Virus record (IMG/VR): IMGVR_UViG_2974629454_000001
Span: 123,119 to 133,195 of that record
DNA length: 10,077 nt
DNA from: Streptomyces virus LukeCage
Lineage: Duplodnaviria > Heunggongvirae > Uroviricota > Caudoviricetes
Direction: 5' to 3' (one strand)
A program made the translations under genes and the position numbers. The notes under the pieces were generated by a model that did not search any database, was not told where the DNA came from, and saw nothing but the letters and a program-made list of their open reading frames with translations. Below, in pieces: positions 188 to 9,890 of this stretch (its first letter is position 1; each line of letters opens with the position of its first letter).

Positions 188-229
188 GATCATTTCGCCG
201 GGGCGGCTTGTGGCCCCCGAAGGGGCCAC
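188..229 (-). repeat. Boundary element 1 (A-tract, dyad core 197-207, UUCG hairpin 210-229)
   Basis: + strand gatcatttc GCCGGGGCGGC tt GTGGCCCC-cgaa-GGGGCCAC. Confidence 0.9.
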
Positions 230-235
230 CGCTAA

Positions 236-628
236 TTAGGGAATCATCCCCAGAGGTTCGAACGTTCCGATAATCTCGGAATCCTTCACCGCCGCCACAG
301 ACTGATAGGTACCGGGTCGCACCTCAGACTTAGTGTCGTAGGCGACGACCATGTAACCAGCGTCGTCCAGGTCATAGCCGAAGTCATCGAACCATTCGGC
401 CACCTGCTCAGGAGACGTGAGAACACAGAACTCATTGGGCATGATACCGCCCGGCACATCGGTCCACGGCGTGGGGTGCGTCTCGTCGGTGTGCTCACGG
501 CACAGACGGTTGGAAACGGACTTCACCTGCGGGTCGAAAGAGTCGAAACCCTCTCGATACGGACCGGCCCACTTACCCGTACGGTTGCCCTCATGCGTCG
601 GGGGAAGGGCAACACGGTAAACGATCAC
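236..628 (-). CDS. Hypothetical phage protein, 130 aa
   Basis: GTG start, AGGAGGAA RBS at 638-631, own promoter, TAA just upstream of hairpin 1. Confidence 0.85.
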   Translation of the reverse strand: MIVYRVALPPTHEGNRTGKWAGPYREGFDSFDPQVKSVSNRLCREHTDETHPTPWTDVPGGIMPNEFCVLTSPEQVAEWFDDFGYDLDDAGYMVVAYDTKSEVRPGTYQSVAAVKDSEIIGTFEPLGMIP

Positions 629-661
629 GTTTCCTCCTAGGTTTCCCTGGTTGGTAGTCCT

Positions 662-691
662 AGTCTAACGTAGTGTCAGCAGAGATCGCAA
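662..691 (-). promoter_or_regulatory. Cassette promoter
   Basis: TTGCGA-18-TAGACT. Confidence 0.75.
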
Positions 692-701
692 CACAATCAA
701 C

Positions 702-735
702 CATGATCTTTTGACCGGGGCGGCCCGAAGGCCGC
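702..735 (-). repeat. Boundary element 2 (core 714-724 overlapping hairpin 720-735)
   Basis: catgatcttttg ACCGGGGCGGC, stem GCGGCC-cgaa-GGCCGC. Confidence 0.9.
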
Positions 736-739
736 TGTG

Positions 740-1087
740 TCAAGTGCCCATACGAATGATCATCTGTTCGATGATGAACCGGCACACAGAAGCTCGGTTG
801 TATTCGTCGTCATTGCGCGTAGTACCCGCAGCTTCCTTGGCAGCCATTGCGTTAATGATTCCGATAGCCAGATCGAACAGAGGCTTTTGCAATTCCTCAT
901 GCTGGCTACACATCAGATACGCAAGGGTGTGAGCGTTGAATGTACGCTTATCGAGTACAGAGAGAATCTTGTCGGCATCCTTTTCCGCCGCGCTCCGCCG
1001 TGTAGACGTAGTACGTGCGCCCTGATAGACATCAGGAGCAATTACCGAAACCTCTGCCAGACGAAAGATATCGCCATTGCGTGCCAT
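740..1087 (-). CDS. Hypothetical phage protein, 115 aa
   Basis: ATG with GGAGG RBS (1096-1092); last gene of the Lsr2 operon; stop next to element 2. Confidence 0.85.
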   Translation of the reverse strand: MARNGDIFRLAEVSVIAPDVYQGARTTSTRRSAAEKDADKILSVLDKRTFNAHTLAYLMCSQHEELQKPLFDLAIGIINAMAAKEAAGTTRNDDEYNRASVCRFIIEQMIIRMGT

Positions 1088-1102
1088 TGTGCCTCCAATG
1101 GA

Positions 1103-1124
1103 ACGGCCCCCTTTCGGGGGCCGT
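1103..1124 (-). other. Intercistronic 9-bp stem-loop with GAAA tetraloop
   Basis: ACGGCCCCC-GAAA-GGGGGCCGT on minus strand; no U-tract; no promoter follows. Confidence 0.75.
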
Positions 1125-1128
1125 AGCC

Positions 1129-1290
1129 TTACTTGGGTTCGAAGTCTTGCGTATTCCCATATCCATCAGTTACGCTGACAGACATACCGAGTACCGTTGC
1201 CAGGAAGGGGCCGAGAGCTTGGATCATGCTCCATGCCTGGTCTTCCTGGTCATCTCCATTGGGCTCGATTTCGAGCATCACGTTAGGCAT
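1129..1290 (-). CDS. Small acidic hypothetical protein, 53 aa (MPNVMLEIEPNGDDQEDQAWSMIQALGPFLATVLGMSVSVTDGYGNTQDFEPK)
   Basis: Translated by hand; fills the gap between the lsr2 stop and the hairpin; AAGG RBS; not in ORF track. Confidence 0.75.
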   Translation of the reverse strand: MPNVMLEIEPNGDDQEDQAWSMIQALGPFLATVLGMSVSVTDGYGNTQDFEPK

Positions 1291-1299
1291 AGGTCTACC

Positions 1300-1812
1300 T
1301 TACTTGACCTTGACCTCTACGTCAAGACCCAGCACCACCGGGCTGCCGCAGGAACAGTGAGACAGGCTGTAACCGCACTTGCACGCCTCACGCTCGTTGA
1401 AGCGCCACACCTTGCCCTTACGGTCGACGGCCACGTACTCCGTGTTACGGCCACGGGTAGCAGGCGCAGCCGGGCGAACGTCCTTACCGGTGGTCACCTT
1501 CACACCGGTAACAGCCGCAGCCTTGACATCCGGATTGGCCTTTGCGTACGCCTCCAGGATCTCACCGGAGATACGGCCACGGGAGTTGATCTCGATACCG
1601 TTGGCCTTAGCCCACGTGCGAACCTTCTTAGCGTCGTAGGCACCAGCCTTGACAGCAGCGGGCTTGTTGGTACGCACCACGCCAGTGTCAGCGAAGACGG
1701 TACCCGCAGCCTCAGCAGCCTTGATCGCCTCGTTTGCTGCCACACTCATTCGACCACGCTTGCCCATCTCAGCGAGACCGAGGGAAGCGGCGTACTCACG
1801 GCGAGTCTGCAT
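1300..1812 (-). CDS. lsr2: Lsr2-like DNA-binding protein with two RGR-type domains and a Cys-rich C-terminus, 170 aa
   Basis: KKVRTWAKANGIEINSRGRISGEILEAYAKAN matches the Lsr2 C-terminal AT-hook-like domain; own promoter and RBS. Confidence 0.85.
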   Translation of the reverse strand: MQTRREYAASLGLAEMGKRGRMSVAANEAIKAAEAAGTVFADTGVVRTNKPAAVKAGAYDAKKVRTWAKANGIEINSRGRISGEILEAYAKANPDVKAAAVTGVKVTTGKDVRPAAPATRGRNTEYVAVDRKGKVWRFNEREACKCGYSLSHCSCGSPVVLGLDVEVKVK

Positions 1813-1845
1813 TTGGTTCCTTCCGTTGTCCTTCGTTGTACCTTA

Positions 1846-1874
1846 AGCATAACAGAGCAAGGGGGACGGGGCAA
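1846..1874 (-). promoter_or_regulatory. Cassette promoter (lsr2 operon)
   Basis: TTGCCC-17-TATGCT, extended TGn. Confidence 0.75.
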
Positions 1875-1899
1875 CATGAAATTATGTCCGGTTTGTCTC

Positions 1900-1919
1900 G
1901 CCGCCCCGGCCCGAAGGCC
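1900..1919 (-). repeat. Boundary element 3 (core 1900-1910 with flipped centre, hairpin 1908-1919)
   Basis: GCCGCCCCGGC, stem GGCC-cgaa-GGCC. Confidence 0.85.
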
Positions 1920-1923
1920 CGCA

Positions 1924-2646
1924 CTATTTCTTAGTGCGAGAGAACCGGATATCAGCCTTACCGAAGATACACAGGCCGCACGTTACGCACGCGCCACCCT
2001 TTTCGGTAATCAGAGGAATCTGCTTAGCATTCTCGGGACACTTTCCACCGGGAACACCAGTCAGAGTTTCGAAGATCTCTTTGCCCTCGTTGAAGGTTTC
2101 TCCCAGATATGCCATTTTGACACCGGGATTGTCAGCCGCGCAAAGAAGCCCGGCGTTAAGGTTTTCCTTGTCTACACTAAGGTAGACAGCCATGTTGGGG
2201 AATCCGTAGATGCATTCCACGTACTGGAATGAACGGGTGTAAATCCAGAATTGCACATCAGGGTGGTGATAGACCACATAGTTGATGGCAATTGCATATT
2301 CCTCGGAGAAGATATCCCCGTCAGCGTGCCAACGGAAATACTTAGGCACGTTGTACTTTTCGCACTCCGCCTCGAATTCATCGATCATCTGCGTCAGGAG
2401 CTTGACCATTACGCCATAAGGCGCATCCTTAAGCAATTCCCAGTTGTGCATAGCAACAGCAAGGAATGCGGGATACTGCTTTTCGATCCTACCGGCATAG
2501 CAGATGCTCTCACATACACCGGTCGCACCGGGACAAGAGAACGCCTTACCGGACGGCAGAGAGAATGCGTTTTTGATGAGCGACTGCTTACCCGCAGTGT
2601 TGGCTCGGACGGTGGTCTTGCGGTCGTTCGTTCGCTTGAGTCCCAT
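1924..2646 (-). CDS. GP88-like phage protein, probable Fe-S / radical-SAM-like, 240 aa; probably leaderless
   Basis: CPGATGVCESICYA, FRWHADGDIFS and C-terminal CVTCGLC motifs recalled from the phage GP88 family; ATG 6 nt after the -10, no RBS. Confidence 0.75.
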   Translation of the reverse strand: MGLKRTNDRKTTVRANTAGKQSLIKNAFSLPSGKAFSCPGATGVCESICYAGRIEKQYPAFLAVAMHNWELLKDAPYGVMVKLLTQMIDEFEAECEKYNVPKYFRWHADGDIFSEEYAIAINYVVYHHPDVQFWIYTRSFQYVECIYGFPNMAVYLSVDKENLNAGLLCAADNPGVKMAYLGETFNEGKEIFETLTGVPGGKCPENAKQIPLITEKGGACVTCGLCIFGKADIRFSRTKK

Positions 2647-2652
2647 GGATTC

Positions 2653-2681
2653 ATCCTAGCAGACGTAAGAGAGAGAATCAA
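2653..2681 (-). promoter_or_regulatory. Cassette promoter (leaderless)
   Basis: TTGATT-17-TAGGAT, extended TGn. Confidence 0.7.
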
Positions 2682-2692
2682 CATGCTTGAGT

Positions 2693-2745
2693 CAAGATCT
2701 TTTGACCGCCCCGGCCAAACGGCCCCCGAAGGGGCCGTTGGCTTT
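2693..2745 (-). repeat. Boundary element 4 (core 2705-2715 with flipped centre, hairpin 2718-2739)
   Basis: caagatcttttg ACCGCCCCGGC ca AACGGCCCC-cgaa-GGGGCCGTT. Confidence 0.9.
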
Positions 2746-2749
2746 CTGA

Positions 2750-2914
2750 TTACTTGGGAGCGACCTCGAAGTCGTCCAGGCCGAGCGCGATGGTCTCGAA
2801 CTCGGTACCCATGTTGTCGGTCATCTCGGCGACGATGTTGCGAACGAGGGCGACACGCACGGTGGCGGTCATGGGGGTCTCGGCGATGACCTTGGCGATG
2901 GCGAGAGCCTTCAT
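2750..2914 (-). CDS. Small hypothetical protein, 54 aa (MKALAIAKVIAETPMTATVRVALVRNIVAEMTDNMGTEFETIALGLDDFEVAPK)
   Basis: Hand translation; GAAAGG RBS; own promoter; not in ORF track. Confidence 0.8.
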   Translation of the reverse strand: MKALAIAKVIAETPMTATVRVALVRNIVAEMTDNMGTEFETIALGLDDFEVAPK

Positions 2915-2943
2915 TTTGGAGCCTTTCGTCGTGGTGTGTTCTT

Positions 2944-2972
2944 AGTCTAGCGGATGGAACTTGGTTTGTCTA
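2944..2972 (-). promoter_or_regulatory. Promoter without dyad/hairpin
   Basis: TAGACA-17-TAGACT; the -35 TAG is the stop codon of the upstream 32-aa ORF. Confidence 0.7.
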
Positions 2973-3068
2973 CTCGCAGTCGACCAGAATTTCCATGTCG
3001 TCCAGGTGAGCGTCGGCACCGTAGGTGTCGTCCTGCTCGTCCTCAATCTTGGCAAGGGTGACAGCCAT
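2970..3068 (-). CDS. Very acidic micropeptide, 32 aa (MAVTLAKIEDEQDDTYGADAHLDDMEILVDCE)
   Basis: Hand translation; GAGGTGG RBS; own promoter at 3113-3142. Confidence 0.7.
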   Translation of the reverse strand: MAVTLAKIEDEQDDTYGADAHLDDMEILVDCE

Positions 3069-3112
3069 CTCAACCACCTCTCTGGGAGGTTTCCCTCCCT
3101 TTCGATGTCTCT

Positions 3113-3142
3113 AGTCTAACAGACGTAAGCGATGATGTACAA
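3113..3142 (-). promoter_or_regulatory. Cassette promoter
   Basis: TTGTAC-18-TAGACT, extended TGn; leader hairpin GGGAGG-GAAA-CCTCCC at 3099-3084. Confidence 0.75.
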
Positions 3143-3153
3143 CGGGTTCTCAG

Positions 3154-3194
3154 CATGATCTTTTGACCGGGGCGGTTCGCGCCCCGAAGGGCGC
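3154..3194 (-). repeat. Boundary element 5 (core 3166-3176, hairpin 3179-3194)
   Basis: catgatcttttg ACCGGGGCGGT tc GCGCCC-cgaa-GGGCGC. Confidence 0.9.
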
Positions 3195-3200
3195 TAGCCG

Positions 3201-3695
3201 TTAGCGAGGGTTACAGATTCCGCAGTCCCAGCCACAACCGTAACTGTCGTAGCTGTAGCTGTTCTCGTAGCTCAGACGCGCAGCCTCTTCGGCCTTCTCG
3301 ATCTTCTTGACCTCCGCGTCGATCATGTCCTTCGCGTCCTTGAGGCTGAGGAACGGGAAGTCGTTGCGGAGACGCTTGATGCACGTGATCTTGTAGAGCT
3401 TGCCGATCTCCTTGACGATCTTCGGAGCGGCCTCACGCGCCTGGTTGTAAGCGAAGTCCTCGATTCCACGCAGACGAACCAGCTCGCTCTTTTCGAGCGT
3501 CAGACCCTCGTTCTTGAGCTGGATCTGACCCGCGACCTTACCGGCCTCGTACCCGTCCGTGTAGCTCTTGTCGGATGCCGCGAGAAGGGTCATGTCGTGG
3601 TAGTTCTTGATCCTGTCAGCCACGTCCATGGCCTGCGTGAAGCCCATCTCCACACCCTCGTCGAGGAAGATCTTCAAAACGTCCAGGGCGTCCAT
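3201..3695 (-). CDS. Hypothetical protein with bL12 (L7/L12) C-terminal-domain-like motif, 164 aa
   Basis: YKITCIKRLRNDFPFLSLKDAKDMID resembles bL12 KIxVIKxVRxxxxLGLKEAKDLVD; own promoter and RBS. Confidence 0.8.
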   Translation of the reverse strand: MDALDVLKIFLDEGVEMGFTQAMDVADRIKNYHDMTLLAASDKSYTDGYEAGKVAGQIQLKNEGLTLEKSELVRLRGIEDFAYNQAREAAPKIVKEIGKLYKITCIKRLRNDFPFLSLKDAKDMIDAEVKKIEKAEEAARLSYENSYSYDSYGCGWDCGICNPR

Positions 3696-3736
3696 GTGTT
3701 CCTCTCTTAGAGGGAGTGTCCCTCTTTGATGTCTCT

Positions 3737-3766
3737 ACTATAGCAAGGAAAGGGGACCGGATGCAA
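3737..3766 (-). promoter_or_regulatory. Cassette promoter
   Basis: TTGCAT-18-TATAGT. Confidence 0.75.
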
Positions 3767-3777
3767 CACAGTCCACG

Positions 3778-3822
3778 AAGATCTTTTCGCCGGGGCGGCT
3801 AGGCCGCCCGAAGGCGGCCCGC
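3778..3822 (-). repeat. Boundary element 6 (core 3789-3799, hairpin 3802-3819)
   Basis: aagatcttttc GCCGGGGCGGC ta GGCCGCC-cgaa-GGCGGCC. Confidence 0.9.
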
Positions 3823-3825
3823 TGC

Positions 3826-4014
3826 TCAGTATGCGATGTTGAGCTGGAGGTGATCCACCTTCTCGAAGTTGATCACATGGACACCACCGTCAGTGCTCTC
3901 GATGAGAGCGACCTTACTGTACAGCTTCTCCTGAACGGCTTCCACGTTACCCTTCGCACGGAACTTGACGGGCTGGTCGCGGTCGCTGTAGTAGACGGTG
4001 ACGTGAGTGTTCAC
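3826..4014 (-). CDS. Hypothetical protein, 62 aa
   Basis: GTG start, GGGAGG RBS, own promoter. Confidence 0.8.
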   Translation of the reverse strand: MNTHVTVYYSDRDQPVKFRAKGNVEAVQEKLYSKVALIESTDGGVHVINFEKVDHLQLNIAY

Positions 4015-4042
4015 TTTGCCTCCCGGCCTCGTTGATAGCTCT

Positions 4043-4071
4043 AGTCTACATGAACAGAGTCAGGATTACAA
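4043..4071 (-). promoter_or_regulatory. Cassette promoter
   Basis: TTGTAA-17-TAGACT. Confidence 0.75.
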
Positions 4072-4077
4072 CCCCGA

Positions 4078-4108
4078 ACCGGGGCGGCTAGAGGGGCCGA
4101 AGCCCCTC
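4078..4108 (-). repeat. Boundary element 7 (core 4078-4088, hairpin 4091-4108; A-tract missing)
   Basis: ACCGGGGCGGC ta GAGGGGC-cgaa-GCCCCTC; only 6 bp from the -35. Confidence 0.9.
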
Positions 4109-4115
4109 CGCCTTT

Positions 4116-4469
4116 CTACCGACGACCCATGGGAAAACCCTTACGCGCTGCCTCCCTTTCCAGCTCCCATCCGTTGTTCGTCTCGCTGGGGTGAACGTAT
4201 TCGATTTCCTTGATGCCCAGCAGATAGGCGACGAGCAGACGGTGATGACCGTTGGTCACACGGTTACGCTCAGGGCTGTACACGATGGGCGTTTTGATGC
4301 CTTCCTTCTCGATGCTCTCGATGAACGCACGGGGCAGCTCATCGAACTTAGCGAGCATGCACTTTTCCTTGTCGTCCATGTAGCGGGAACCGTAGTTGCC
4401 CGTACGAGAGTCGGAAGCGTCTCCGAAGATCGCATCGTGCCAGAGCTTTTCCACGTTCGCCTGGGGCAT
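4116..4469 (-). CDS. ParB/Srx-like nuclease-domain protein, about 117 aa
   Basis: IESIEKEGIKTPIV...VTNGHHRLLVAYLLG is a ParB N-terminal signature; ATG at 4469 preferred over GTG at 4475 because GGAG lies upstream of it. Confidence 0.8.
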   Translation of the reverse strand: MPQANVEKLWHDAIFGDASDSRTGNYGSRYMDDKEKCMLAKFDELPRAFIESIEKEGIKTPIVYSPERNRVTNGHHRLLVAYLLGIKEIEYVHPSETNNGWELEREAARKGFPMGRR

Positions 4470-4505
4470 CTTCACTCCAAGTTTTCTCGCCCTGTTGGTA
4501 GTTAT

Positions 4506-4535
4506 AGTCTAACGGATGATGTGATGGGGAGTCAA
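4506..4535 (-). promoter_or_regulatory. Cassette promoter
   Basis: TTGACT-18-TAGACT. Confidence 0.8.
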
Positions 4536-4545
4536 CTCAACCCAT

Positions 4546-4590
4546 CAAGATTTTTAGCCGGGGCGGCTAGGCCGCCCGAAGGCGGCCCGC
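4546..4590 (-). repeat. Boundary element 8 (core 4557-4567, hairpin 4570-4587)
   Basis: caagattttta GCCGGGGCGGC ta GGCCGCC-cgaa-GGCGGCC; 34 bp identical to element 6. Confidence 0.9.
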
Positions 4591-4595
4591 CATGA

Positions 4596-4739
4596 TCAGA
4601 CCCAGTTCCAGCCGAGGTGAAGAAGGGCACCGACGATCATGATCAGAAAGGCACTGACACCAGCATTGACGAGAAAGAGCAGAACAGCCTGCGGGCCGGT
4701 GCAGTTGGAAGCGGTGATCGGACCCTTGACGTTGTACAT
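4596..4739 (-). CDS. Small membrane protein, 47 aa (MYNVKGPITASNCTGPQAVLLFLVNAGVSAFLIMIVGALLHLGWNWV)
   Basis: Hand translation; AGGAG RBS; long hydrophobic segment. Confidence 0.75.
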   Translation of the reverse strand: MYNVKGPITASNCTGPQAVLLFLVNAGVSAFLIMIVGALLHLGWNWV

Positions 4740-4746
4740 GTCACTC

Positions 4747-4863
4747 CTAGAGAAAGGCGAAGAGCACAGTCTTTGCTGTCCACAAGCCTAGCATAAGTAG
4801 GCCGATCAGGAAAGGTATGAGAACTAGTAGTCCTGCACACCCGACGATCTTTATCAGACCCAC
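4747..4863 (-). CDS. Small membrane protein, about 38 aa (MGLIKIVGCAGLLVLIPFLIGLLMLGLWTAKTVLFAFL)
   Basis: Hand translation; fills the operon gap; GTG start overlaps upstream gene; no clear RBS, so the start is uncertain. Confidence 0.55.
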   Translation of the reverse strand: MGLIKIVGCAGLLVLIPFLIGLLMLGLWTAKTVLFAFL

Positions 4864-5012
4864 TCAAGGGGGTCGTAGTCGAAGATGTCACGGTGATCAC
4901 GGTAGCGATCTGCACGCTGCCTCTTGATCTCACCGAGCTTCTTGATTTCCTTGACGCGCTTGGTCTGCGCCAGGTATCGCTCGTTCCGCAGCCTACGAAG
5001 ATCTTCTCGCAT
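4854..5012 (-). CDS. Small basic protein, 52 aa (MREDLRRLRNERYLAQTKRVKEIKKLGEIKRQRADRYRDHRDIFDYDPLEWV)
   Basis: Hand translation; GAAGGG RBS; own promoter. Confidence 0.8.
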   Translation of the reverse strand: MREDLRRLRNERYLAQTKRVKEIKKLGEIKRQRADRYRDHRDIFDYDPLEWV

Positions 5013-5035
5013 TTCGTTCCCTTCGTTGTGTCTCT

Positions 5036-5065
5036 AGTATATACAGAGGTGGGAGGGAAGCGCAA
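5036..5065 (-). promoter_or_regulatory. Cassette promoter
   Basis: TTGCGC-18-TATACT. Confidence 0.75.
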
Positions 5066-5075
5066 CATAGATCTT

Positions 5076-5117
5076 CAAGATCTTTTCGCCGGGGCGGCTT
5101 GCGCCCCGAAGGGCGCA
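5076..5117 (-). repeat. Boundary element 9 (core 5088-5098, hairpin 5100-5117)
   Basis: caagatcttttc GCCGGGGCGGC t TGCGCCC-cgaa-GGGCGCA. Confidence 0.9.
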
Positions 5118-5123
5118 GCCTTA

Positions 5124-5462
5124 TCAGTCTCGGATGTTCATGACCTCACGGTAGAACCGAAGGTAGGCATCCGCAGCGTCCTCGGCATCCTCCAAAGACT
5201 CGTAGTCACCGAATCCGTCAAGAGTGGTCATGGTGAACGCTCCCTCTTCGTTGCGGGAAGCGTAGCGGAGGCTGTACGACTTGTCTTCCGGGTCCGATCG
5301 GTATTCGGAAGTGATGAAGATCGATCCGCGCTGACCGATGGGGAAAACGTTCGGCTGGAGTTCCGTGTTGAAGAACTCCATAGACCCCTTCGTGAACCAG
5401 TGTCGGGCGGTGGAGTTGGACTCACGGGACGCCTTGACGATCTGGTGCATCGTGGAGAACAT
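5124..5462 (-). CDS. Hypothetical phage protein, 112 aa
   Basis: ATG, GAGAGG RBS, own promoter, double stop; the HWF..GSMEFFN...FITSE pattern resembles a recurrent uncharacterised phage family (from memory, unverified). Confidence 0.85.
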   Translation of the reverse strand: MFSTMHQIVKASRESNSTARHWFTKGSMEFFNTELQPNVFPIGQRGSIFITSEYRSDPEDKSYSLRYASRNEEGAFTMTTLDGFGDYESLEDAEDAADAYLRFYREVMNIRD

Positions 5463-5490
5463 TTACGTTCCTCTCGCTCGGTGTAAGACG

Positions 5491-5520
5491 AGTCTAACAC
5501 ACTCATAGGACAGAACACAA
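5491..5520 (-). promoter_or_regulatory. Cassette promoter
   Basis: TTGTGT-18-TAGACT, extended TGn. Confidence 0.75.
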
Positions 5521-5536
5521 GCCCTCTAGCAAATCA

Positions 5537-5568
5537 GCCGGGGCGGCCAAACGGCCCCCGAAGGGGCC
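5537..5568 (-). repeat. Boundary element 10 (core 5537-5547, hairpin 5553-5568)
   Basis: GCCGGGGCGGC caaac GGCCCC-cgaa-GGGGCC. Confidence 0.9.
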
Positions 5569-5574
5569 AGATGA

Positions 5575-5685
5575 CTAGCGACCTTGCTTCAAGATCGCAT
5601 CGATGCCATAGAGGAGAATGATTCCCAGTCCGATGGTGTATGAACCGCTGATTACCGAGAGGTACAGAATCATGATCGCTTCCAT
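5575..5685 (-). CDS. Small membrane peptide, 36 aa (MEAIMILYLSVISGSYTIGLGIILLYGIDAILKQGR)
   Basis: Hand translation; ATG overlaps the upstream TGA (TGATG coupling). Confidence 0.7.
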   Translation of the reverse strand: MEAIMILYLSVISGSYTIGLGIILLYGIDAILKQGR

Positions 5686-5951
5686 CAGAGAACCGGCTTC
5701 TTGCCGAGTCCCATGCTCTTGCCGAAGTCGTAGGACTTGCCCTTGACCTCGTATCCCGGAAGAACCTTGGTCACACGGAACGGAGCGGCACGGTGGAGGG
5801 CGGACAGCTTCTCAGCAGAACCCGCAGCCTCGACGTAGACCTTACCGGAACGCTCGTTGACTCGGTACTCGAACTCCACTCCGTACACGGTGGCCATCGT
5901 GATGACGACACCAGCGCGCTTGACGGAAACCTCGCCCATGAGAACGGCCAT
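5685..5951 (-). CDS. Hypothetical protein, 88 aa
   Basis: ATG, GAAAGG RBS, own promoter. Confidence 0.85.
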   Translation of the reverse strand: MAVLMGEVSVKRAGVVITMATVYGVEFEYRVNERSGKVYVEAAGSAEKLSALHRAAPFRVTKVLPGYEVKGKSYDFGKSMGLGKKPVL

Positions 5952-5979
5952 TGTATTGCCTTTCGTTCGGTGTTACTAG

Positions 5980-6008
5980 AGTCTATCAGATGCGGTGGAC
6001 GTTGTCAC
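5980..6008 (-). promoter_or_regulatory. Promoter embedded in the 3' end of the upstream gene (no dyad/hairpin)
   Basis: GTGACA-17-TAGACT. Confidence 0.65.
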
Positions 6009-6264
6009 GCAGTTCGTTGAACGTGTGCGGACTGGTGACGATCTCAGCGTTGCGGTAAAACCCGTGATCCACAAGGACCGTTACCGAGTTATACACAACG
6101 TTCTGTACCGTTCCAGTGTACGCGATCTTGCCGTCAATTTCAAGGCCCTCGTTCAGATAAAGCTGAGCCCAACTGTTGACGACTACGACCCTGTCACCCG
6201 TACGGAGCTTGCCGAAGTTGCTTTGCAGATACTTGCGAATCCTGTAGCTGAGAGGCATCGCCAT
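5986..6264 (-). CDS. Hypothetical protein, 92 aa
   Basis: ATG, GAAGGGGAG RBS, own promoter. Confidence 0.8.
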   Translation of the reverse strand: MAMPLSYRIRKYLQSNFGKLRTGDRVVVVNSWAQLYLNEGLEIDGKIAYTGTVQNVVYNSVTVLVDHGFYRNAEIVTSPHTFNELRDNVHRI

Positions 6265-6287
6265 GATCTCTCCCCTTCGTTAAGACG

Positions 6288-6316
6288 AGTCTACATGACG
6301 CCGGGCGAGATTGCAA
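6288..6316 (-). promoter_or_regulatory. Cassette promoter
   Basis: TTGCAA-17-TAGACT. Confidence 0.8.
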
Positions 6317-6330
6317 CACTTTTTCAAAAA

Positions 6331-6372
6331 AGCCGGGGCGGCCAAACGGCCCCCGAAGGGGCCGTTGGCTTT
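6331..6372 (-). repeat. Boundary element 11 (core 6332-6342, hairpin 6345-6366)
   Basis: GCCGGGGCGGC ca AACGGCCCC-cgaa-GGGGCCGTT. Confidence 0.9.
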
Positions 6373-6374
6373 GA

Positions 6375-6947
6375 TCAGCCGTTCATGCCGCATCCGCACG
6401 GGCAAGAACCCTGGAAGGACTCTTCGGAGGACTCGATGGACTCGCGGGCCACGTCGTTCGTCGTCAGCTTCTCACGCAGCGCATTGAGCGCGGACTGAGT
6501 GGCCAACTCGGGCTCGGGCTTCGGGGAGTCCTTCTCGACCTGCTCGATCTTGTCCCATTCGAGCTGATCGGTGGTCCCGACCGGCGTGATCATGTCCACG
6601 ATGGACTTCGCCTCGATGAGACCCAGCGGACGGAACTTGTCACGCAGAACCTTGATGCAGGTGATCTTGCGGGTGAAGTCACGCGGCGTGAAGTTCGCCA
6701 CGGCCCACGCAGTTGCGGAAACCACGTTCGGGTCGAAGGTGGCACGAATGGAGTTCTTGCCAGCCTCCACACCAGCGTCGTAGCGCTCCTGACCGTACGC
6801 GTACTTCGCGTCCTCGGCCTTGTACTTCTCGTCTTCCATCTTGCGACGGAAGCCACGGTCGATGTCACCCGCGAAGCGGAGAGCGTCAGCGATCTTGGTG
6901 TCGGGGAAGTAGTTGCCGACCTGCTGAACGATCTCGATGCGCTCCAT
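6375..6947 (-). CDS. Hypothetical protein with bL12 (L7/L12) C-terminal-domain-like motif, 190 aa; paralogue of 3201-3695
   Basis: RKITCIKVLRDKFRPLGLIEAKSIVD; GAAGGG RBS; own promoter. Confidence 0.85.
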   Translation of the reverse strand: MERIEIVQQVGNYFPDTKIADALRFAGDIDRGFRRKMEDEKYKAEDAKYAYGQERYDAGVEAGKNSIRATFDPNVVSATAWAVANFTPRDFTRKITCIKVLRDKFRPLGLIEAKSIVDMITPVGTTDQLEWDKIEQVEKDSPKPEPELATQSALNALREKLTTNDVARESIESSEESFQGSCPCGCGMNG

Positions 6948-6995
6948 GAGGTTTCCCTTCGTCTTAGGGGACTTCTTGCCCCCTTCGATGTACTA

Positions 6996-7025
6996 ATCTT
7001 AGCAGAGCCTAGCGGGCTGTGTCCA
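6996..7025 (-). promoter_or_regulatory. Cassette promoter
   Basis: TGGACA-18-TAAGAT, extended TGn. Confidence 0.65.
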
Positions 7026-7035
7026 ACTGTTCTTT

Positions 7036-7076
7036 CAAGATTTTTTGGCCGGGGCGGTTCGCCGCCCGAAGGCGGC
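7036..7076 (-). repeat. Boundary element 12 (core 7048-7058, hairpin 7061-7076)
   Basis: caagattttttg GCCGGGGCGGT tc GCCGCC-cgaa-GGCGGC. Confidence 0.9.
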
Positions 7077-7082
7077 TAGCCG

Positions 7083-7379
7083 TTACTCCCAAGGTGAGTA
7101 GTCAGACTCACGCTCGGCAGGCTTACGCTCGATACGGTCAAGGTAGCGGCCGGTGCTGTTGACGGACCAAATGGCCCTACGCCCGTTGTTGCTGTAACGC
7201 TTCTTGGTCAGCCTCTTGAGAACGGTCTCAGCCTCACGACGAGAGCGAACCTTGACAGACACGCAGGGCTCACGGTAGTTGTAGTACCATCCGCCCTCTT
7301 CCGGACCACCGCACGCGAGGTCTTCGAGATAGATGTTGGCGTAGAACGGCTTGGGCTTACGAACCTTGGGCGTCTTCAT
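7083..7379 (-). CDS. Hypothetical protein with GGPEEGGW motif, 98 aa; probably leaderless
   Basis: The track start TTG at 7415 is the promoter -35; ATG at 7379 lies 7 nt after the TAGACT -10 with no RBS. Confidence 0.8.
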   Translation of the reverse strand: MKTPKVRKPKPFYANIYLEDLACGGPEEGGWYYNYREPCVSVKVRSRREAETVLKRLTKKRYSNNGRRAIWSVNSTGRYLDRIERKPAERESDYSPWE

Positions 7380-7386
7380 AGGGATG

Positions 7387-7415
7387 AGTCTAGCAGAGTA
7401 TTGGGCCGGTGGCAA
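7387..7415 (-). promoter_or_regulatory. Cassette promoter (leaderless)
   Basis: TTGCCA-17-TAGACT, extended TGn. Confidence 0.8.
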
Positions 7416-7430
7416 CAGATTCTCAATTTA

Positions 7431-7452
7431 GCCGGGGCGGCCCCGAAGGGCC
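7431..7452 (-). repeat. Boundary element 13 (core 7431-7441 overlapping hairpin 7439-7452)
   Basis: GCCGGGGCGGC, stem GGCCC-cgaa-GGGCC. Confidence 0.85.
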
Positions 7453-7457
7453 TGACG

Positions 7458-7688
7458 TTACCGCCAGAGGAATTGACCTTGACATGCACAGTCGTTGGGA
7501 ACCTTGTCTACCTTCTTGAAAGCACGAATGATCGTCTCTCGCGGGTAGACAGCTCGCAGGCACTCACGAGGGTTGTGGTGACCTACCTTGATCCACTGGT
7601 CTACGACTTCCACATAGAGGAAAGTCTGTTCGTGTCCGGTCTGCTTCTCTTGCTGAACGTAGACTTCGCCCTCAGAGATCCATTCCAT
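7458..7688 (-). CDS. Hypothetical protein, 76 aa (MEWISEGEVYVQ...)
   Basis: Start revised from 7754 to the ATG at 7688, which overlaps the TGA of the upstream 51-aa gene (TGATG). Confidence 0.75.
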   Translation of the reverse strand: MEWISEGEVYVQQEKQTGHEQTFLYVEVVDQWIKVGHHNPRECLRAVYPRETIIRAFKKVDKVPNDCACQGQFLWR

Positions 7689-7843
7689 CACACACTCCTG
7701 GTCTTGATCTTCTCGCACTTCACGCACTTGCGAACCTGCATGGGCTGAGTCCACGTGACAGGCTTACCCTTGATCCAACCCATAAGAGGGCTGTCCATGT
7801 GAGCAGTGACGAGAACCCACTTCGTCCACTTGTGACGGCACAT
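7688..7843 (-). CDS. Small putative Zn-binding protein, 51 aa (MCRHKWTKWVLVTAHMDSPLMGWIKGKPVTWTQPMQVRKCVKCEKIKTRSV)
   Basis: Hand translation; CxH...CxxC; TAATG and TGATG overlaps on both sides; not in ORF track. Confidence 0.75.
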   Translation of the reverse strand: MCRHKWTKWVLVTAHMDSPLMGWIKGKPVTWTQPMQVRKCVKCEKIKTRSV

Positions 7844-8046
7844 TACGAAAGCCTCCCACAGATGCACTTGATCTTGTCGCCGGGTTCCATGTACGTCTCG
7901 ATGGTGTACTGCGGGATCATCATCGTGGTGCAGTCGTCGTCGCTCGTGTGGATCACGATGAACGCCTGATCACTGATCAGATCGATGATCTCCGTGCGGC
8001 AGTTCGGGTCGGACTTCTTCGGCTGCATGATGTCTCCGGGCTTCAT
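7843..8046 (-). CDS. Hypothetical protein, 67 aa; probably leaderless
   Basis: ATG 6 nt after the TAGACT -10; first gene of a translationally coupled three-gene operon. Confidence 0.75.
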   Translation of the reverse strand: MKPGDIMQPKKSDPNCRTEIIDLISDQAFIVIHTSDDDCTTMMIPQYTIETYMEPGDKIKCICGRLS

Positions 8047-8052
8047 GTATGA

Positions 8053-8082
8053 AGTCTAGCACTCGGATTGGATGAGATGCAA
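8053..8082 (-). promoter_or_regulatory. Cassette promoter (leaderless)
   Basis: TTGCAT-18-TAGACT, extended TGn. Confidence 0.75.
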
Positions 8083-8095
8083 GCCCTACGCCGAT

Positions 8096-8160
8096 TTTTT
8101 AGTCTCTAGATGTCTACACAGATTTTTAGTCATCTAGCCGGGGCGGCTAACTTTTTAGTC
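8096..8160. repeat. Dyad core 14 (TAGCCG-GGG-CGGCTA, 8135-8149) without hairpin, among three TTTTTAGTC copies
   Basis: TTTTTAGTC at 8096-8104, 8123-8131 and 8152-8160. Confidence 0.75.
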
Positions 8161-8245
8161 AGAAAATCACCCCTATGATTCGAAGGTTTTTCGCGCATAT
8201 ACCTAAGAAACACAGGGGTGAAAATCTAAGCGAATTTATTCAGAT

Positions 8246-8470
8246 TCACCAGAGTTCGTCCACTTTGGCCCAGAATCGGTGGACTCGCGGATCGTTGTTG
8301 TCGTTTGCGTAGAACGGATCATGAATTGTGCCCGTCAACGCATTTGCGATTTCGGGCCGGTGGACAGCAACTCGATTGAATACGAATTGCCCATAACGCT
8401 GCCCCTTGTTGTCGCGCATCCATTCTGCGATGGTATCGAGAATGAATTGATTCAAGGACAGTTCGGCCAT
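8246..8470 (-). CDS. Hypothetical protein, 74 aa (MAELSLNQ...QRYGQFVFN...DPFY)
   Basis: ATG at 8470 with GGAAG upstream is preferred over the track start, which overlaps the upstream gene. Confidence 0.75.
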   Translation of the reverse strand: MAELSLNQFILDTIAEWMRDNKGQRYGQFVFNRVAVHRPEIANALTGTIHDPFYANDNNDPRVHRFWAKVDELW

Positions 8471-8474
8471 TAAG

Positions 8475-8651
8475 TCACTTCCAATCGGTGGGAAGTTCGC
8501 CAGATTCGATGATGTTCTTTTCCATTCGCTCGAAAACGACCTTTGCCCCGATGAAAGAGGCAATCAGCTTGTTTCCTTGCGCAGTCATCGACCTTTCGAG
8601 CAACATTCGCAATTCTTCGAGATCCTTTTGCAGTTGCTGCTCAACATACAT
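8475..8651 (-). CDS. Hypothetical protein, about 58 aa (MYVEQQLQKDLEELR...)
   Basis: ATG at 8651 with AAAGGGTG RBS reduces the 86-nt overlap of the track ORF (8726) to 11 nt. Confidence 0.6.
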   Translation of the reverse strand: MYVEQQLQKDLEELRMLLERSMTAQGNKLIASFIGAKVVFERMEKNIIESGELPTDWK

Positions 8652-8853
8652 AGGTTTCACCCTTTCCAGTTCCACAAAGGCAATATACGGAATGCTTTGC
8701 TTCCACCGGGCGAAATCCGCCTTCATTGTACTTTTTCAGAAGGATTTCGAGATTTCCCGAAGAAATTACGCCCGTTTCGGAAAACAGGCCGTTCTTTTCG
8801 AGCTTGAGGGTAAGCGAATGTGTACGAACGGCTTTTGCCCTATTCCTGAACAT
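8641..8853 (-). CDS. Hypothetical protein, 70 aa
   Basis: ATG with GAAAGGG RBS. Confidence 0.7.
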   Translation of the reverse strand: MFRNRAKAVRTHSLTLKLEKNGLFSETGVISSGNLEILLKKYNEGGFRPVEAKHSVYCLCGTGKGETYVC

Positions 8854-8874
8854 TGCTTTCCCTTTCTACCCCTA

Positions 8875-8904
8875 ATGGGGGATACCCTTTCGGATATCCC
8901 CCAT
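8875..8904 (-). other. Intercistronic 13-bp stem-loop with GAAA tetraloop
   Basis: One pair is a G-U wobble only when read on the minus strand (C/A mismatch on plus), indicating a minus-strand RNA structure. Confidence 0.75.
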
Positions 8905-8910
8905 ATTGAG

Positions 8911-9054
8911 TTACGCCAGTTCGGAAACGTGCGGATAGTCGGTTTCGTCCATGTCCACCGTACGCATGTCGTCCTGTACGGTAGATACGGGCAGGGTGCT
9001 CACAGAGACCCATCCCTCAGAGACGGCCCGCTCCAGAAGTTCGAGAGTGGTCAA
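8911..9054 (-). CDS. Small acidic protein, about 47 aa (MTTLELLERAVSEGWVSVSTLPVSTVQDDMRTVDMDETDYPHVSELA)
   Basis: TTG at 9054 with GGAAGGG RBS, downstream of the promoter at 9088-9116; the track start GTG lies inside the -35. Confidence 0.6.
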   Translation of the reverse strand: MTTLELLERAVSEGWVSVSTLPVSTVQDDMRTVDMDETDYPHVSELA

Positions 9055-9087
9055 GTTGATCAGTCCCTTCCGTCTTGGTGTAGTACC

Positions 9088-9116
9088 AGTATACACAGCC
9101 CATACGCTGTGCACAA
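9088..9116 (-). promoter_or_regulatory. First leftward promoter
   Basis: TTGTGC-17-TATACT. Confidence 0.7.
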
Positions 9117-9228
9117 CCTAGATCCTCCGGGAAATTTTTGTACGCTTTCGTACACGCGCGGGGGATTTGTCCGGGAATTCCGTAATGCCCTCTTAAAGAG
9201 GAATGCCCCCTATGCGCTGCATGCCCAG

Positions 9229-9302
9229 TGTGTACCCATATGGTAGGGTATGTACCCTATGTACCATATGCCCTATATGTACCCCTATGTACCAGTATGT
9301 CC
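9229..9302. repeat. Degenerate tandem micro-repeat TATGTACC (4 exact, about 3 degenerate)
   Basis: Exact at 9249, 9258, 9276, 9286; variants at 9229, 9267, 9296. Confidence 0.85.
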
Positions 9303-9312
9303 GATTTGTCCG

Positions 9313-9323
9313 GCCGCCCCGGT
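9313..9323 (+). repeat. Dyad core 15 (GCCG-CCC-CGGT) upstream of the rightward gene
   Basis: Matches RCCG-SSS-CGGY; CCC on the sense strand, as in most leftward cassettes. Confidence 0.7.
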
Positions 9324-9390
9324 CGGCAATCCTTTACCAAGCCGTTACCTAAAAACCTCGGATTCAGGGGTTTTCCCGTGTGTGGTGGGG

Positions 9391-9396
9391 TAGTCT
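9391..9396 (+). promoter_or_regulatory. Probable -10 of the rightward promoter
   Basis: TAGTCT followed by leader GGTACAACGA, identical to the start of the lsr2 leader; no clear -35. Confidence 0.45.
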
Positions 9397-9431
9397 GTAG
9401 GTACAACGACAGAGACAAGGGAGACAGCGAC

Positions 9432-9890
9432 ATGATCACCACCACCGCCCCGGTTACCCACAACAGCAACACTCACCAGTGCAGGGACAACGACCGTACG
9501 GCCGGTAGCGCGTACCGTAGGCAGCTTCTCGCTACGGTCCTGTACCTGGCTAGCCTTACGGGGCACTCGGACGGTGAGACGTACGCTGTGTGTGTGGGTT
9601 GTGGTGAGAATGCATACGTGGGGGGTGCACCCCGGAACATGGACACGCTGAACCTTGGTCACTGTGAGGCAGACGCAACGGGGGGTACCTACTGCGCTGC
9701 GAACATGCTCCCCCTGTGCAGGCAGTGCAACGAGGACATGGGTAAGGATGCCCTTACCGATGTGCTTGTCCCCCTGTATGACAACCGTCACATGTGGGAC
9801 GGTAAGTTGATCAAGGACAGTGGCAAGGTTAAGCAGGAAGCGCAGGCAAACCGAGGACGTGCCAACTGGAAGCGCCCTGCGAGCGTCTGA
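9432..9890 (+). CDS. HNH endonuclease, 152 aa
   Basis: CVGCG zinc knuckle plus LGHCEADATGGTYCAANMLPLCRQCNEDMG (H...N...CxxCN); ATG at 9432 with AAGGGAG RBS preferred over track start 9228. Confidence 0.8.
   Translation: MITTTAPVTHNSNTHQCRDNDRTAGSAYRRQLLATVLYLASLTGHSDGETYAVCVGCGENAYVGGAPRNMDTLNLGHCEADATGGTYCAANMLPLCRQCNEDMGKDALTDVLVPLYDNRHMWDGKLIKDSGKVKQEAQANRGRANWKRPASV

Follow-up and report, generated by a model that had tools for sequence, protein, structure and literature searches.

A 10,077-nucleotide stretch of the genome of Streptomyces virus LukeCage (below, "the window" means the whole of this stretch) contains 16 exact copies of a nine-base dyad, CCGGGGCGG/CCGCCCCGG, against 0.09 expected, and none of 200 shuffles reached 16. 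On balance, the comparison of related genomes makes it probable that this dyad is a multi-copy operator whose reader, a phage-encoded DNA-binding protein of two-fold symmetry, would control the genes of the direct terminal repeat (DTR) as a block. We infer the binding of a protein, the phage origin of the binder and the sign of the regulation.

The window corresponds to bases 2215–12291 of the phage genome (133,195 bp), whose first 12,291 bp recur at its right end as the DTR; the right edge of the window is the exact DTR boundary. Among public records the closest relatives are Karimacvirus members of cluster BE, a group of Streptomyces phages, with StarPlatinum at 88.9% identity; 81 records matched the window. 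The DTR has a G+C content of 54.8%, compared with 47.7% in the unique region, and almost all of its genes, which are presumed to be the first expressed and to depend on the host RNA polymerase, are directed leftward. On the sense strand the order between DTR genes is a stop codon, a GC-rich hairpin with a UUCG loop and the 9-mer dyad, often followed by a AAAAGATCTTGA box, a TTGnnn -35 hexamer, a -10 hexamer near TAGACT, and the Shine-Dalgarno sequence with the start codon.

Fifteen of the 16 copies in the window are intergenic, the exception being the copy at 9445, which lies inside the rightward HNH gene. The centre reads GGG on the plus strand at twelve sites and CCC at four (all positions are listed below). 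As the original prediction, made from the letters of the window, had stated, the inverted arms CCG...CGG are kept in all 15 intergenic copies, the centre is GGG or CCC in every copy, here also genome-wide, and the arms extend over six pairs, TAGCCG...CGGCTA, at 4555 and 8135. That prediction had named equal abundance of the motif in coding DNA across the genome as a finding that would speak against it; exact copies in fact number 18 per DTR copy and zero in the 108.6-kb unique region. Copies with one mismatch are distributed the other way round, with none in the DTR and six, a chance-level number, in the unique region. The hairpin stems, spacers and promoters around the dyad vary among cassettes, and the 9-mer is constant. 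Just outside the window, 61 bp past its right end, a near-copy of the dyad, CCGTCCCGG, is found at genome positions 12352–12360 after GATGATCTTG. This near-copy beyond the DTR boundary is conserved in LukeCage, StarPlatinum, Karimac and BoomerJR, and relatives carry CCGGGACGG.

Palindromes of related phage genera

For comparison, the first 13.5 kb of thirteen relatives were analysed. Within Karimacvirus the core is invariant in six genomes, with 18–21 copies in each, and 73 distinct sites tabulated from five genomes yield the consensus R-CCG-(GGG|CCC)-CGG-Y; the intermediate CCGGSCCGG was never present among the Karimacvirus sites. Five relatives together hold 95 perfect sites and a single decayed copy at a cassette position (Karimac 10605). 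In the sister genera the equivalent slot, between hairpin and promoter, is occupied by different GC-rich palindromes of odd length: GACCGG-S-CCGGTC in Tomasvirus, TGTC(C/G)G-NNN-C(G/C)GACA in Samistivirus and TGGCGCC-S-GGCGCCA in Coruscantvirus. Genome-wide pattern counts gave 10–15 copies of the own-type palindrome per DTR in Coruscant, Tomas, Jay2Jay, Paradiddles and Mildred21 and none in the unique interior (~110 kb) of the same five genomes; in Jay2Jay and Paradiddles one extra copy is situated at ~11 kb, beside or just past the right boundary of the DTR.

An orthologous site ~750 bp from the left end has flanks conserved in three genera and arms that are genus-specific (ttaaCCG...CGGttca, cgaCCGG...CCGGtcg and tgtCCGG...CCGGaca). 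The arms change symmetrically between genera. The version of the palindrome follows the genus of the phage and not the host: Streptomyces griseus ATCC 10137 is host to both Karimac and Paradiddles, and Streptomyces lividans JI 1326 to both BoomerJR and Jay2Jay, each pair representing two dyad types. Neither the gene array nor the dyad is present in the BK-cluster phage Annadreamy or in phage Byblos, and the BE-phage satellites MiniFlayer and MulchRoom are free of the dyads of both helper types. Among the relatives, cassettes have been gained, lost and swapped at dyad junctions. No published description of these motifs was found in the literature searched.

Two of the 14 leftward cassettes of the window, at 1901 and 2706, are flipped, with CCC on the plus strand and with hairpin and promoter in the usual leftward orientation; the original prediction had pointed out both (as 1900 and 2705). 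It had also matched its elements 4 and 11 over 33 bp except for the flipped centre, and we find ~34 identical nucleotides from the right arm onward, with opposite centres, at 2706 and 6333. The predicted flips are real and recur at orthologous sites of relatives. The site at 1901 is flipped in all six Karimacvirus genomes examined. At the left-end site the centre is flipped, within unchanged flanks, between BoomerJR and Karimac and again between Paradiddles and Mildred21, and Jay2Jay has the intermediate CCGGCCCGG there. The cassette of the GP88-family gene (2706), likewise within unchanged flanks, has the usual orientation in Wofford and the flipped one in LukeCage, StarPlatinum and Karimac. 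Flips at BoomerJR 8195 and Wofford 7331 accompany a swapped downstream promoter module, which indicates exchange between cassettes. In the genera with a single-base centre a flip amounts to one transversion. The GGG/CCC flip would be what a symmetric reader tolerates, the sites of sister genera with a single central G or C being perfectly palindromic. That only the two homopolymer end states are kept suggests that the Karimacvirus reader needs a run of G4/C4.

The variability of the Samistivirus palindrome allowed the arms to be examined for pairing. In an alignment of 58 distinct sites (a few of which are spurious matches in coding DNA) with a six-pair stem, 87.4% of the cells were paired, compared with 85.8 ± 1.0% after shuffling, and 48 of 500 shuffles reached the observed value; the covariation score over these sites was not raised. 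One inner pair is unpaired at 20 of the 58 sites (34%), and its Watson-Crick count, 32 of 54, is close to the 32.9 expected if the arms choose C or G independently. Position ±5 of the Karimacvirus sites is also near independence. Since the arms vary without covariation, they appear to be independently read half-sites rather than a stem. Furthermore, flipping the centre in silico in LukeCage did not destabilise the predicted RNA fold and often stabilised it; therefore RNA pairing does not explain the preferred orientation. The orientation-independent site for a dimeric protein that the original prediction had put forward remains the best fit to the four genus-specific palindromes, the symmetric change of the arms, their independence and the orthologous flips.

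Hairpins, promoters and transcripts around the dyads

The dyads of the window are listed below, with the orientation of the centre and the immediate surroundings; the RNA contigs mentioned are described at the end of this section.

198–206, GGG on the plus strand: hairpin 210–229 starts 3 nt to the right, and to the left is the promoter belonging to the next leftward gene.
715–723, GGG on the plus strand: overlaps the stem of hairpin 719–736.
1901–1909, CCC on the plus strand, flipped: upstream of the promoter of the Lsr2-like gene, with a CGGACAT half-site between dyad and -35.
2706–2714, CCC on the plus strand, flipped: upstream of the promoter of the GP88-family gene.
3167–3175, GGG on the plus strand: hairpin 3179–3194; crossed by RNA contigs.
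3790–3798, GGG on the plus strand: hairpin 3802–3819.
4079–4087, GGG on the plus strand: shortest gap to the -35 (7 bp); hairpin 4091–4108; crossed by an RNA contig.
4558–4566, GGG on the plus strand: extended arms 4555–4569; hairpin 4570–4587.
5089–5097, GGG on the plus strand: hairpin 5099–5118; crossed by RNA contigs.
5538–5546, GGG on the plus strand: hairpin 5553–5568; in BoomerJR and Wofford the orthologue is flipped and its promoter module swapped.
6333–6341, GGG on the plus strand: hairpin 6345–6366; the sole copy in the window that is followed by a U-tract on the sense strand.
7049–7057, GGG on the plus strand: hairpin 7061–7076; crossed by one RNA contig.
7432–7440, GGG on the plus strand: overlaps hairpin 7439–7452.
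8138–8146, GGG on the plus strand: extended arms 8135–8149; no adjacent hairpin; among three GACTAAAAA repeats; 55-bp gap to the -35.
9314–9322, CCC on the plus strand: lies ~110 bp before the rightward HNH gene, within the divergent control region, adjoining CGGACA half-sites and a GGTACAT array.
9445–9453, CCC on the plus strand: codons 5–8 of the HNH gene, kept in all Karimacvirus genomes examined.

The last of these copies may be either a working site or a coding constraint.

The dyad is packed against the hairpin, and the variable part of the cassette is the distance to the promoter. In eight of 13 window cassettes the stem of the hairpin is 3 nt from the dyad, and in the rest the two are separated by 0–6 nt or overlap (three overlap); at most sites in all three genera measured the gap is 0–3 nt. 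The dyads at 8138, 9314 and 9445 have no neighbouring hairpin. From dyad to -35 the gap is 22–26 bp in 10 of the 14 leftward cassettes (that of 5089 being 23 bp when re-read by eye) and 16–17 bp in three, with further values of 7 and 55 bp. These classes agree within 1 bp with the ones originally reported, and they put the main class near -63 to -65. The estimated dyad centres fall near -46, -56, -64 and -95 and display no helical phasing. Measured from the dyad centre to the -10, the distances cluster at 34–35, 43–46 and 51–53 bp in Karimacvirus and are spread over 33–85 bp in Samistivirus. The dyad at genome position 755, downstream of the last leftward gene, has no recognisable promoter within ~100 nt downstream. 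The absence of helical phasing argues against a classical class I activator, and of the class I distance that had been proposed in the original prediction it can be said that the main spacing class alone fits it.

The unique region of the same genome offers a useful reference. Host-type promoters with the consensus TTGACA-N17-TAGAGT/TAGACT are found on the plus strand at 84–117 kb without a dyad, where they precede many small genes and tRNA genes of the right arm; the dyad is therefore unnecessary for promoter function and marks the units of the DTR. The -35 hexamers of the DTR promoters (TTGCGA, TTGCAT, TTGATT) are weaker than the TTGACA of the unique region. An UP-like A-tract next to the dyad was also part of the prediction. 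An A-rich box is indeed present, but it belongs to the promoter: in Tomas the AAAAGATCTT box keeps a constant 10–11 bp to the -35, whereas its distance to the dyad varies by 2–5 bp, and it is therefore a part of the promoter and not of the dyad. In LukeCage the A-rich box contains a perfect palindrome, AAGATCTT (699–712, 2690–2703, 3151–3164, 3774–3787, 5073–5086 and others), and the counterpart in Coruscant, AGATG-N8-CATCT, has an equal position. Instead of being a plain UP element, the box may form a second binding site for a protein.

Other repeats accompany some of the dyads. Between 8096 and 8175 the dyad at 8138, which lacks a hairpin, is flanked by three GACTAAAAA repeats (genome positions 10310, 10337 and 10366, minus strand), an arrangement also seen in Tomas, Samistivirus and Coruscant; the repeats may be a protein-binding array in their own right, upstream of the promoter that serves the gene at 7843–8046. 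At 9230–9330, where the leftward array and the rightward HNH gene diverge, there are four GGTACAT repeats and similar GGGCAT units, and CGGACA(T) half-sites stand directly beside the dyad at 9314. CGGACAT also adjoins the dyads at 1901 and at genome position 755, and arrays of it were found in Samistivirus and Byblos.

All 13 cassette hairpins read UUCG in their loops on the sense strand and on that strand only. A terminator scan flagged none of the 13, and none has a U-tract; after the dyad most cassettes carry an A-tract instead of a U-tract. RNAfold draws the dyad as a mini-hairpin of its own in some cassettes, and that of the dyad at 6333, the only one in the window followed by a T-run, was flagged together with its U-run as terminator-like. 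Terminators in the unique region of the genome are canonical, with a hairpin and a U-tract and without a dyad. Roadblock-assisted termination was considered and rejected: its geometry is wrong, as the polymerase would stall before the 3' arm of the hairpin is transcribed.

Contigs 99% identical to the window were found in rhizosphere metatranscriptomes of two studies. Their cover is uneven, ranging from zero over some stretches (7393–8064 and 9073–9408) to ~20-fold at 6385–7056, which speaks for RNA and not for carried-over DNA; within 2786–7364 it is highest over the L12-like gene at 6375–6947. The contigs suggest that the phage was actively infecting in soil. They run across the dyads at 198, 3167, 4079, 4558, 5089, 5538 and 7049, so that hairpin and dyad together are at best a leaky stop. 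Over the best-covered gene (6375–6947) contigs stop on the 3' side at 6332, 6337, 6375 and 6385 and on the 5' side at 6937–6978. Contigs cannot define RNA ends, and the stops at 6332 and 6337, from one study, are a weak hint of a 3' end.

Candidate binders and competing explanations

The original prediction had noted no obvious cognate regulator or recombinase in the window, and none is recognisable by Pfam and PHROGs. Searches of the 25 open reading frames (ORFs) of the window against the two collections returned only an Lsr2 DNA-binding domain (Lsr2_DNA-bd), GP88, DUF7447, a weak L12 C-terminal match, a ParB N-terminal-like match and HNH; no helix-turn-helix (HTH), ribbon-helix-helix (RHH) or repressor family was found among the DTR ORFs. 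Six-frame searches of the genome with HTH_3, HTH_17, RHH_1, Sigma70_r4 and WhiB yielded a 49-aa HTH at 66.6 kb and a WhiB-like gene at 113 kb. The former was set aside, being present also in cluster BK phages, which lack dyads, as was an annotated "DNA binding protein" beside the DTR, which by eye is Dps-like. The Lsr2-like protein is an unlikely reader, since Lsr2 proteins favour AT-rich DNA. The 119-aa ParB-like DTR protein matched only PHROGs of the ParB N-terminal type, with no Pfam match and no HTH, and to our knowledge the dyad has no sequence likeness to parS.

Eight DTR proteins are common to all four genera. Two of them were folded, a basic protein of 98 aa (predicted local distance difference test, pLDDT, 66) and a protein of 115 aa (pLDDT 51); Foldseek searches of the PDB with these low-confidence models gave no match, and the protein atlas gave no lead. 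A basic, helical protein of 52 aa is confined to Karimacvirus. The gene for the binder is most likely inside the DTR gene array, as dyads occur only in phages that have the array. The window also encodes two L12-like paralogues, a GP88-family protein, the HNH endonuclease and many small orphans. The paralogues (3201–3695 and 6375–6947; phrog_5819) have a weak match to the C-terminal domain of ribosomal L7/L12 and cysteine-rich C-terminal tails. The Lsr2-like protein (1300–1812) has by eye two RGR-type Lsr2 DNA-binding repeats, of which Pfam finds one, and a C-terminal cluster of four cysteines.

If the dyad is an operator, the 9-mer would be the core of a site in double-stranded DNA, and its reader would be two-fold-symmetric and probably homodimeric. 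The site would tag nearly every transcription unit of the DTR and, because it lies between the preceding hairpin and the upstream edge of the next promoter, its occupancy could switch the whole DTR as one block; host-type promoters elsewhere, which have no such site, would stay unaffected. We lean towards a negative or insulating role, such as shut-off of pre-early genes, a block to the use of the alpha-subunit C-terminal domain or of the UP element, or a stop to read-through, over class I activation; an activator delivered with the virion is possible. Several observations weigh against an operator. Perfect conservation of 18 of 18 copies is stricter than in most operator sets and more like that of an enzyme target. 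The tight packing against the hairpin, with a variable distance to the promoter, points to a possible role at RNA 3' ends, and a stem of 4–6 bp with a 3-nt loop is possible in the Karimacvirus, Tomasvirus and Coruscantvirus palindromes. For simple steric repression, 47–95 bp before the start site is an unusual location, and neither the DTR ORFs nor the genome-wide family searches furnished a candidate binder. Finally, CCGCCCCGG is the sense-strand reading of ~14 of 16 leftward cassettes and likewise, in the sense of the rightward HNH gene, of both dyads at that gene; a symmetric reader needs no such bias. We attribute the bias to shared ancestry of the cassettes, albeit it could be functional.

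A rival reading is that the dyad acts in RNA, forming either the tail of the UUCG hairpin or a second, smaller hairpin, and that jointly with the main hairpin it terminates or stabilises leftward mRNAs without a U-tract. We hold this to be unlikely. The tight coupling of hairpin and dyad in three genera, the confinement of UUCG loops to the sense strand, the mini-hairpins drawn by RNAfold (terminator-like at 6333), the weak hint from the contig stops at 6332 and 6337, and a loop flip that leaves the stem intact all agree with it, but Samistivirus shows no covariation, and the inner mismatch in 34% of its sites removes a stable stem. Moreover, an A-tract rather than a U-tract follows most dyads, contigs cross seven of them, those at 8138, 9314 and 9445 stand without a hairpin, the terminators of the unique region do without a dyad, and flipping in silico does not destabilise the folds. 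The all-or-none conservation, with 18 perfect copies and no near-misses, would rather befit the target of an enzyme (a nicking or HNH endonuclease, as at the single-strand interruptions of T5 DNA, a modification enzyme, or a crossover point at which cassettes are shuffled), and the HNH endonuclease gene of the DTR with a dyad on both sides of its start, together with the exchange of cassettes at dyad junctions, could be read in the same way. Yet the HNH endonuclease is the best-conserved DTR protein, with 60–95% identity across genera whose dyads differ completely; nick sites are normally strand-specific, whereas the dyad flips; and modification targets would not be expected solely in the intergenic spaces of a single 12-kb segment. 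Homologous exchange would need more than a 9-bp core. No recombinase families were found in the window by Pfam and PHROGs, and none is annotated in the Karimac genome. The recombination core with an invertible centre that the original prediction had offered as an alternative fares no better, given arms of 3–4 bp and the lack of centre variants in the RNA contigs over seven dyads, a weak point because contigs drop rare variants. An enzyme target is thus decidedly improbable in our estimation.

A transcription factor of the Streptomyces host, acting at the dyad by class I-type activation, has the attraction that a pre-existing factor would be ready when the DNA enters, and the main spacing class near -64 beside an A-rich UP-like box and the comparatively weak -35 hexamers are in keeping with it. 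It is nevertheless a shade less probable even than an enzyme target: unrelated palindromes serve different genera on one host strain, one type occurs across several hosts, and the spacing is unphased and, in Samistivirus, as broad as 33–85 bp. Least credible, to the point of being barely worth entertaining, is a functionless dyad, carried along in a repeated hairpin-promoter module and homogenised by gene conversion among the cassettes. Long identical stretches between cassettes (34 nt at 2706 and 6333) and flips that travel with swapped promoter modules fit such a history; however, hairpins, spacers and promoters differ where the 9-mer never does, four genera preserve the palindromic symmetry in sequences that differ, and the orthologous left-end site has taken the arm type of each genome. 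A broader idea, to which we give a low probability between those of the RNA module and the enzyme target, is that the dyads are handles for a phage protein, possibly delivered with the virion, which treats the DTR as one physical unit, each genus having co-evolved its own pair of protein and site. Such handles might capture or ratchet the first DNA to enter, as in the T5-like first-step transfer; ~18 sites might be bridged into a transcription hub shielded from silencing by the host Lsr2; or a hairpin lacking a U-tract might, with its bound protein, form a new kind of switchable terminator.

Comparison with known systems

Cluster BE comprises large, strictly lytic Streptomyces phages whose early programme is uncharacterised and whose DTR genes are mostly of unknown function. 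If the dyad is an operator, a perfect site confined to the DTR, in four genus versions, would define the complete regulon of a candidate regulator, which is directly testable. The four versions would also form a natural specificity-swap series for the co-evolution of protein and site, and the dyads may be the means by which the first-expressed genes are controlled independently of other host-type promoters. They are a possible source of orthogonal protein/operator pairs for Streptomyces engineering.

The closest known systems appear to be the conserved inverted repeat (CIR) operators of phiC31, the stoperators of mycobacteriophage L5 and the terminal-repeat early modules of Bacillus phage SPO1 (host takeover) and of T5 (pre-early genes, first-step transfer); the dyad belongs demonstrably to none of these. 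Looser parallels exist as well. Like the hairpin promoters of the N4 virion RNA polymerase, the dyads are short GC-rich inverted repeats with a 3-nt centre (in Karimacvirus and Samistivirus) upstream of the earliest genes. N4 promoters, however, are extruded DNA hairpins that need the virion RNA polymerase, whereas the Karimac annotation contains no RNA polymerase, ordinary -35 and -10 hexamers follow the dyads, and pairing is not conserved in Samistivirus. With class I sites, such as that of CRP at -61.5, the main spacing class shares a dimer-type palindrome, here near -64, upstream of an A-rich UP-like box, but class I sites keep helical phase and the dyad centres do not.

As in SPO1 and T5, a long terminal repeat holds small early genes, each with a strong host-type promoter and a terminator. 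In both of these phages the genes of the repeat are selectively shut off, and TF1 of SPO1 is an HU-type protein that depends on modified DNA and has preferred sites near the promoters of the terminal repeat. No HU-type gene was seen in LukeCage, and we know of no shared exact palindrome described in SPO1 or T5. The stoperators of L5 and other cluster A phages resemble the dyads in being tens of near-identical short intergenic sites with an orientation bias relative to transcription, through which one protein silences many transcription units, in part by blocking elongation. A stoperator is an asymmetric 13-mer with a monomeric reader and a strict orientation, and such sites are distributed genome-wide, whereas the dyad is palindromic, flips and is absent from the unique regions of LukeCage, Tomas, Coruscant, Jay2Jay, Paradiddles and Mildred21. 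From the CIRs of phiC31, a temperate phage whose immunity (c) repressor binds these 17-bp, not purely GC, sites, the dyads differ in that LukeCage is lytic and has no recognisable repressor, the sites are confined to the DTR and their core of 9–15 bp is almost pure G+C. What the two have in common is many copies of a conserved inverted repeat between the early genes of a Streptomyces phage, near promoters and terminators.

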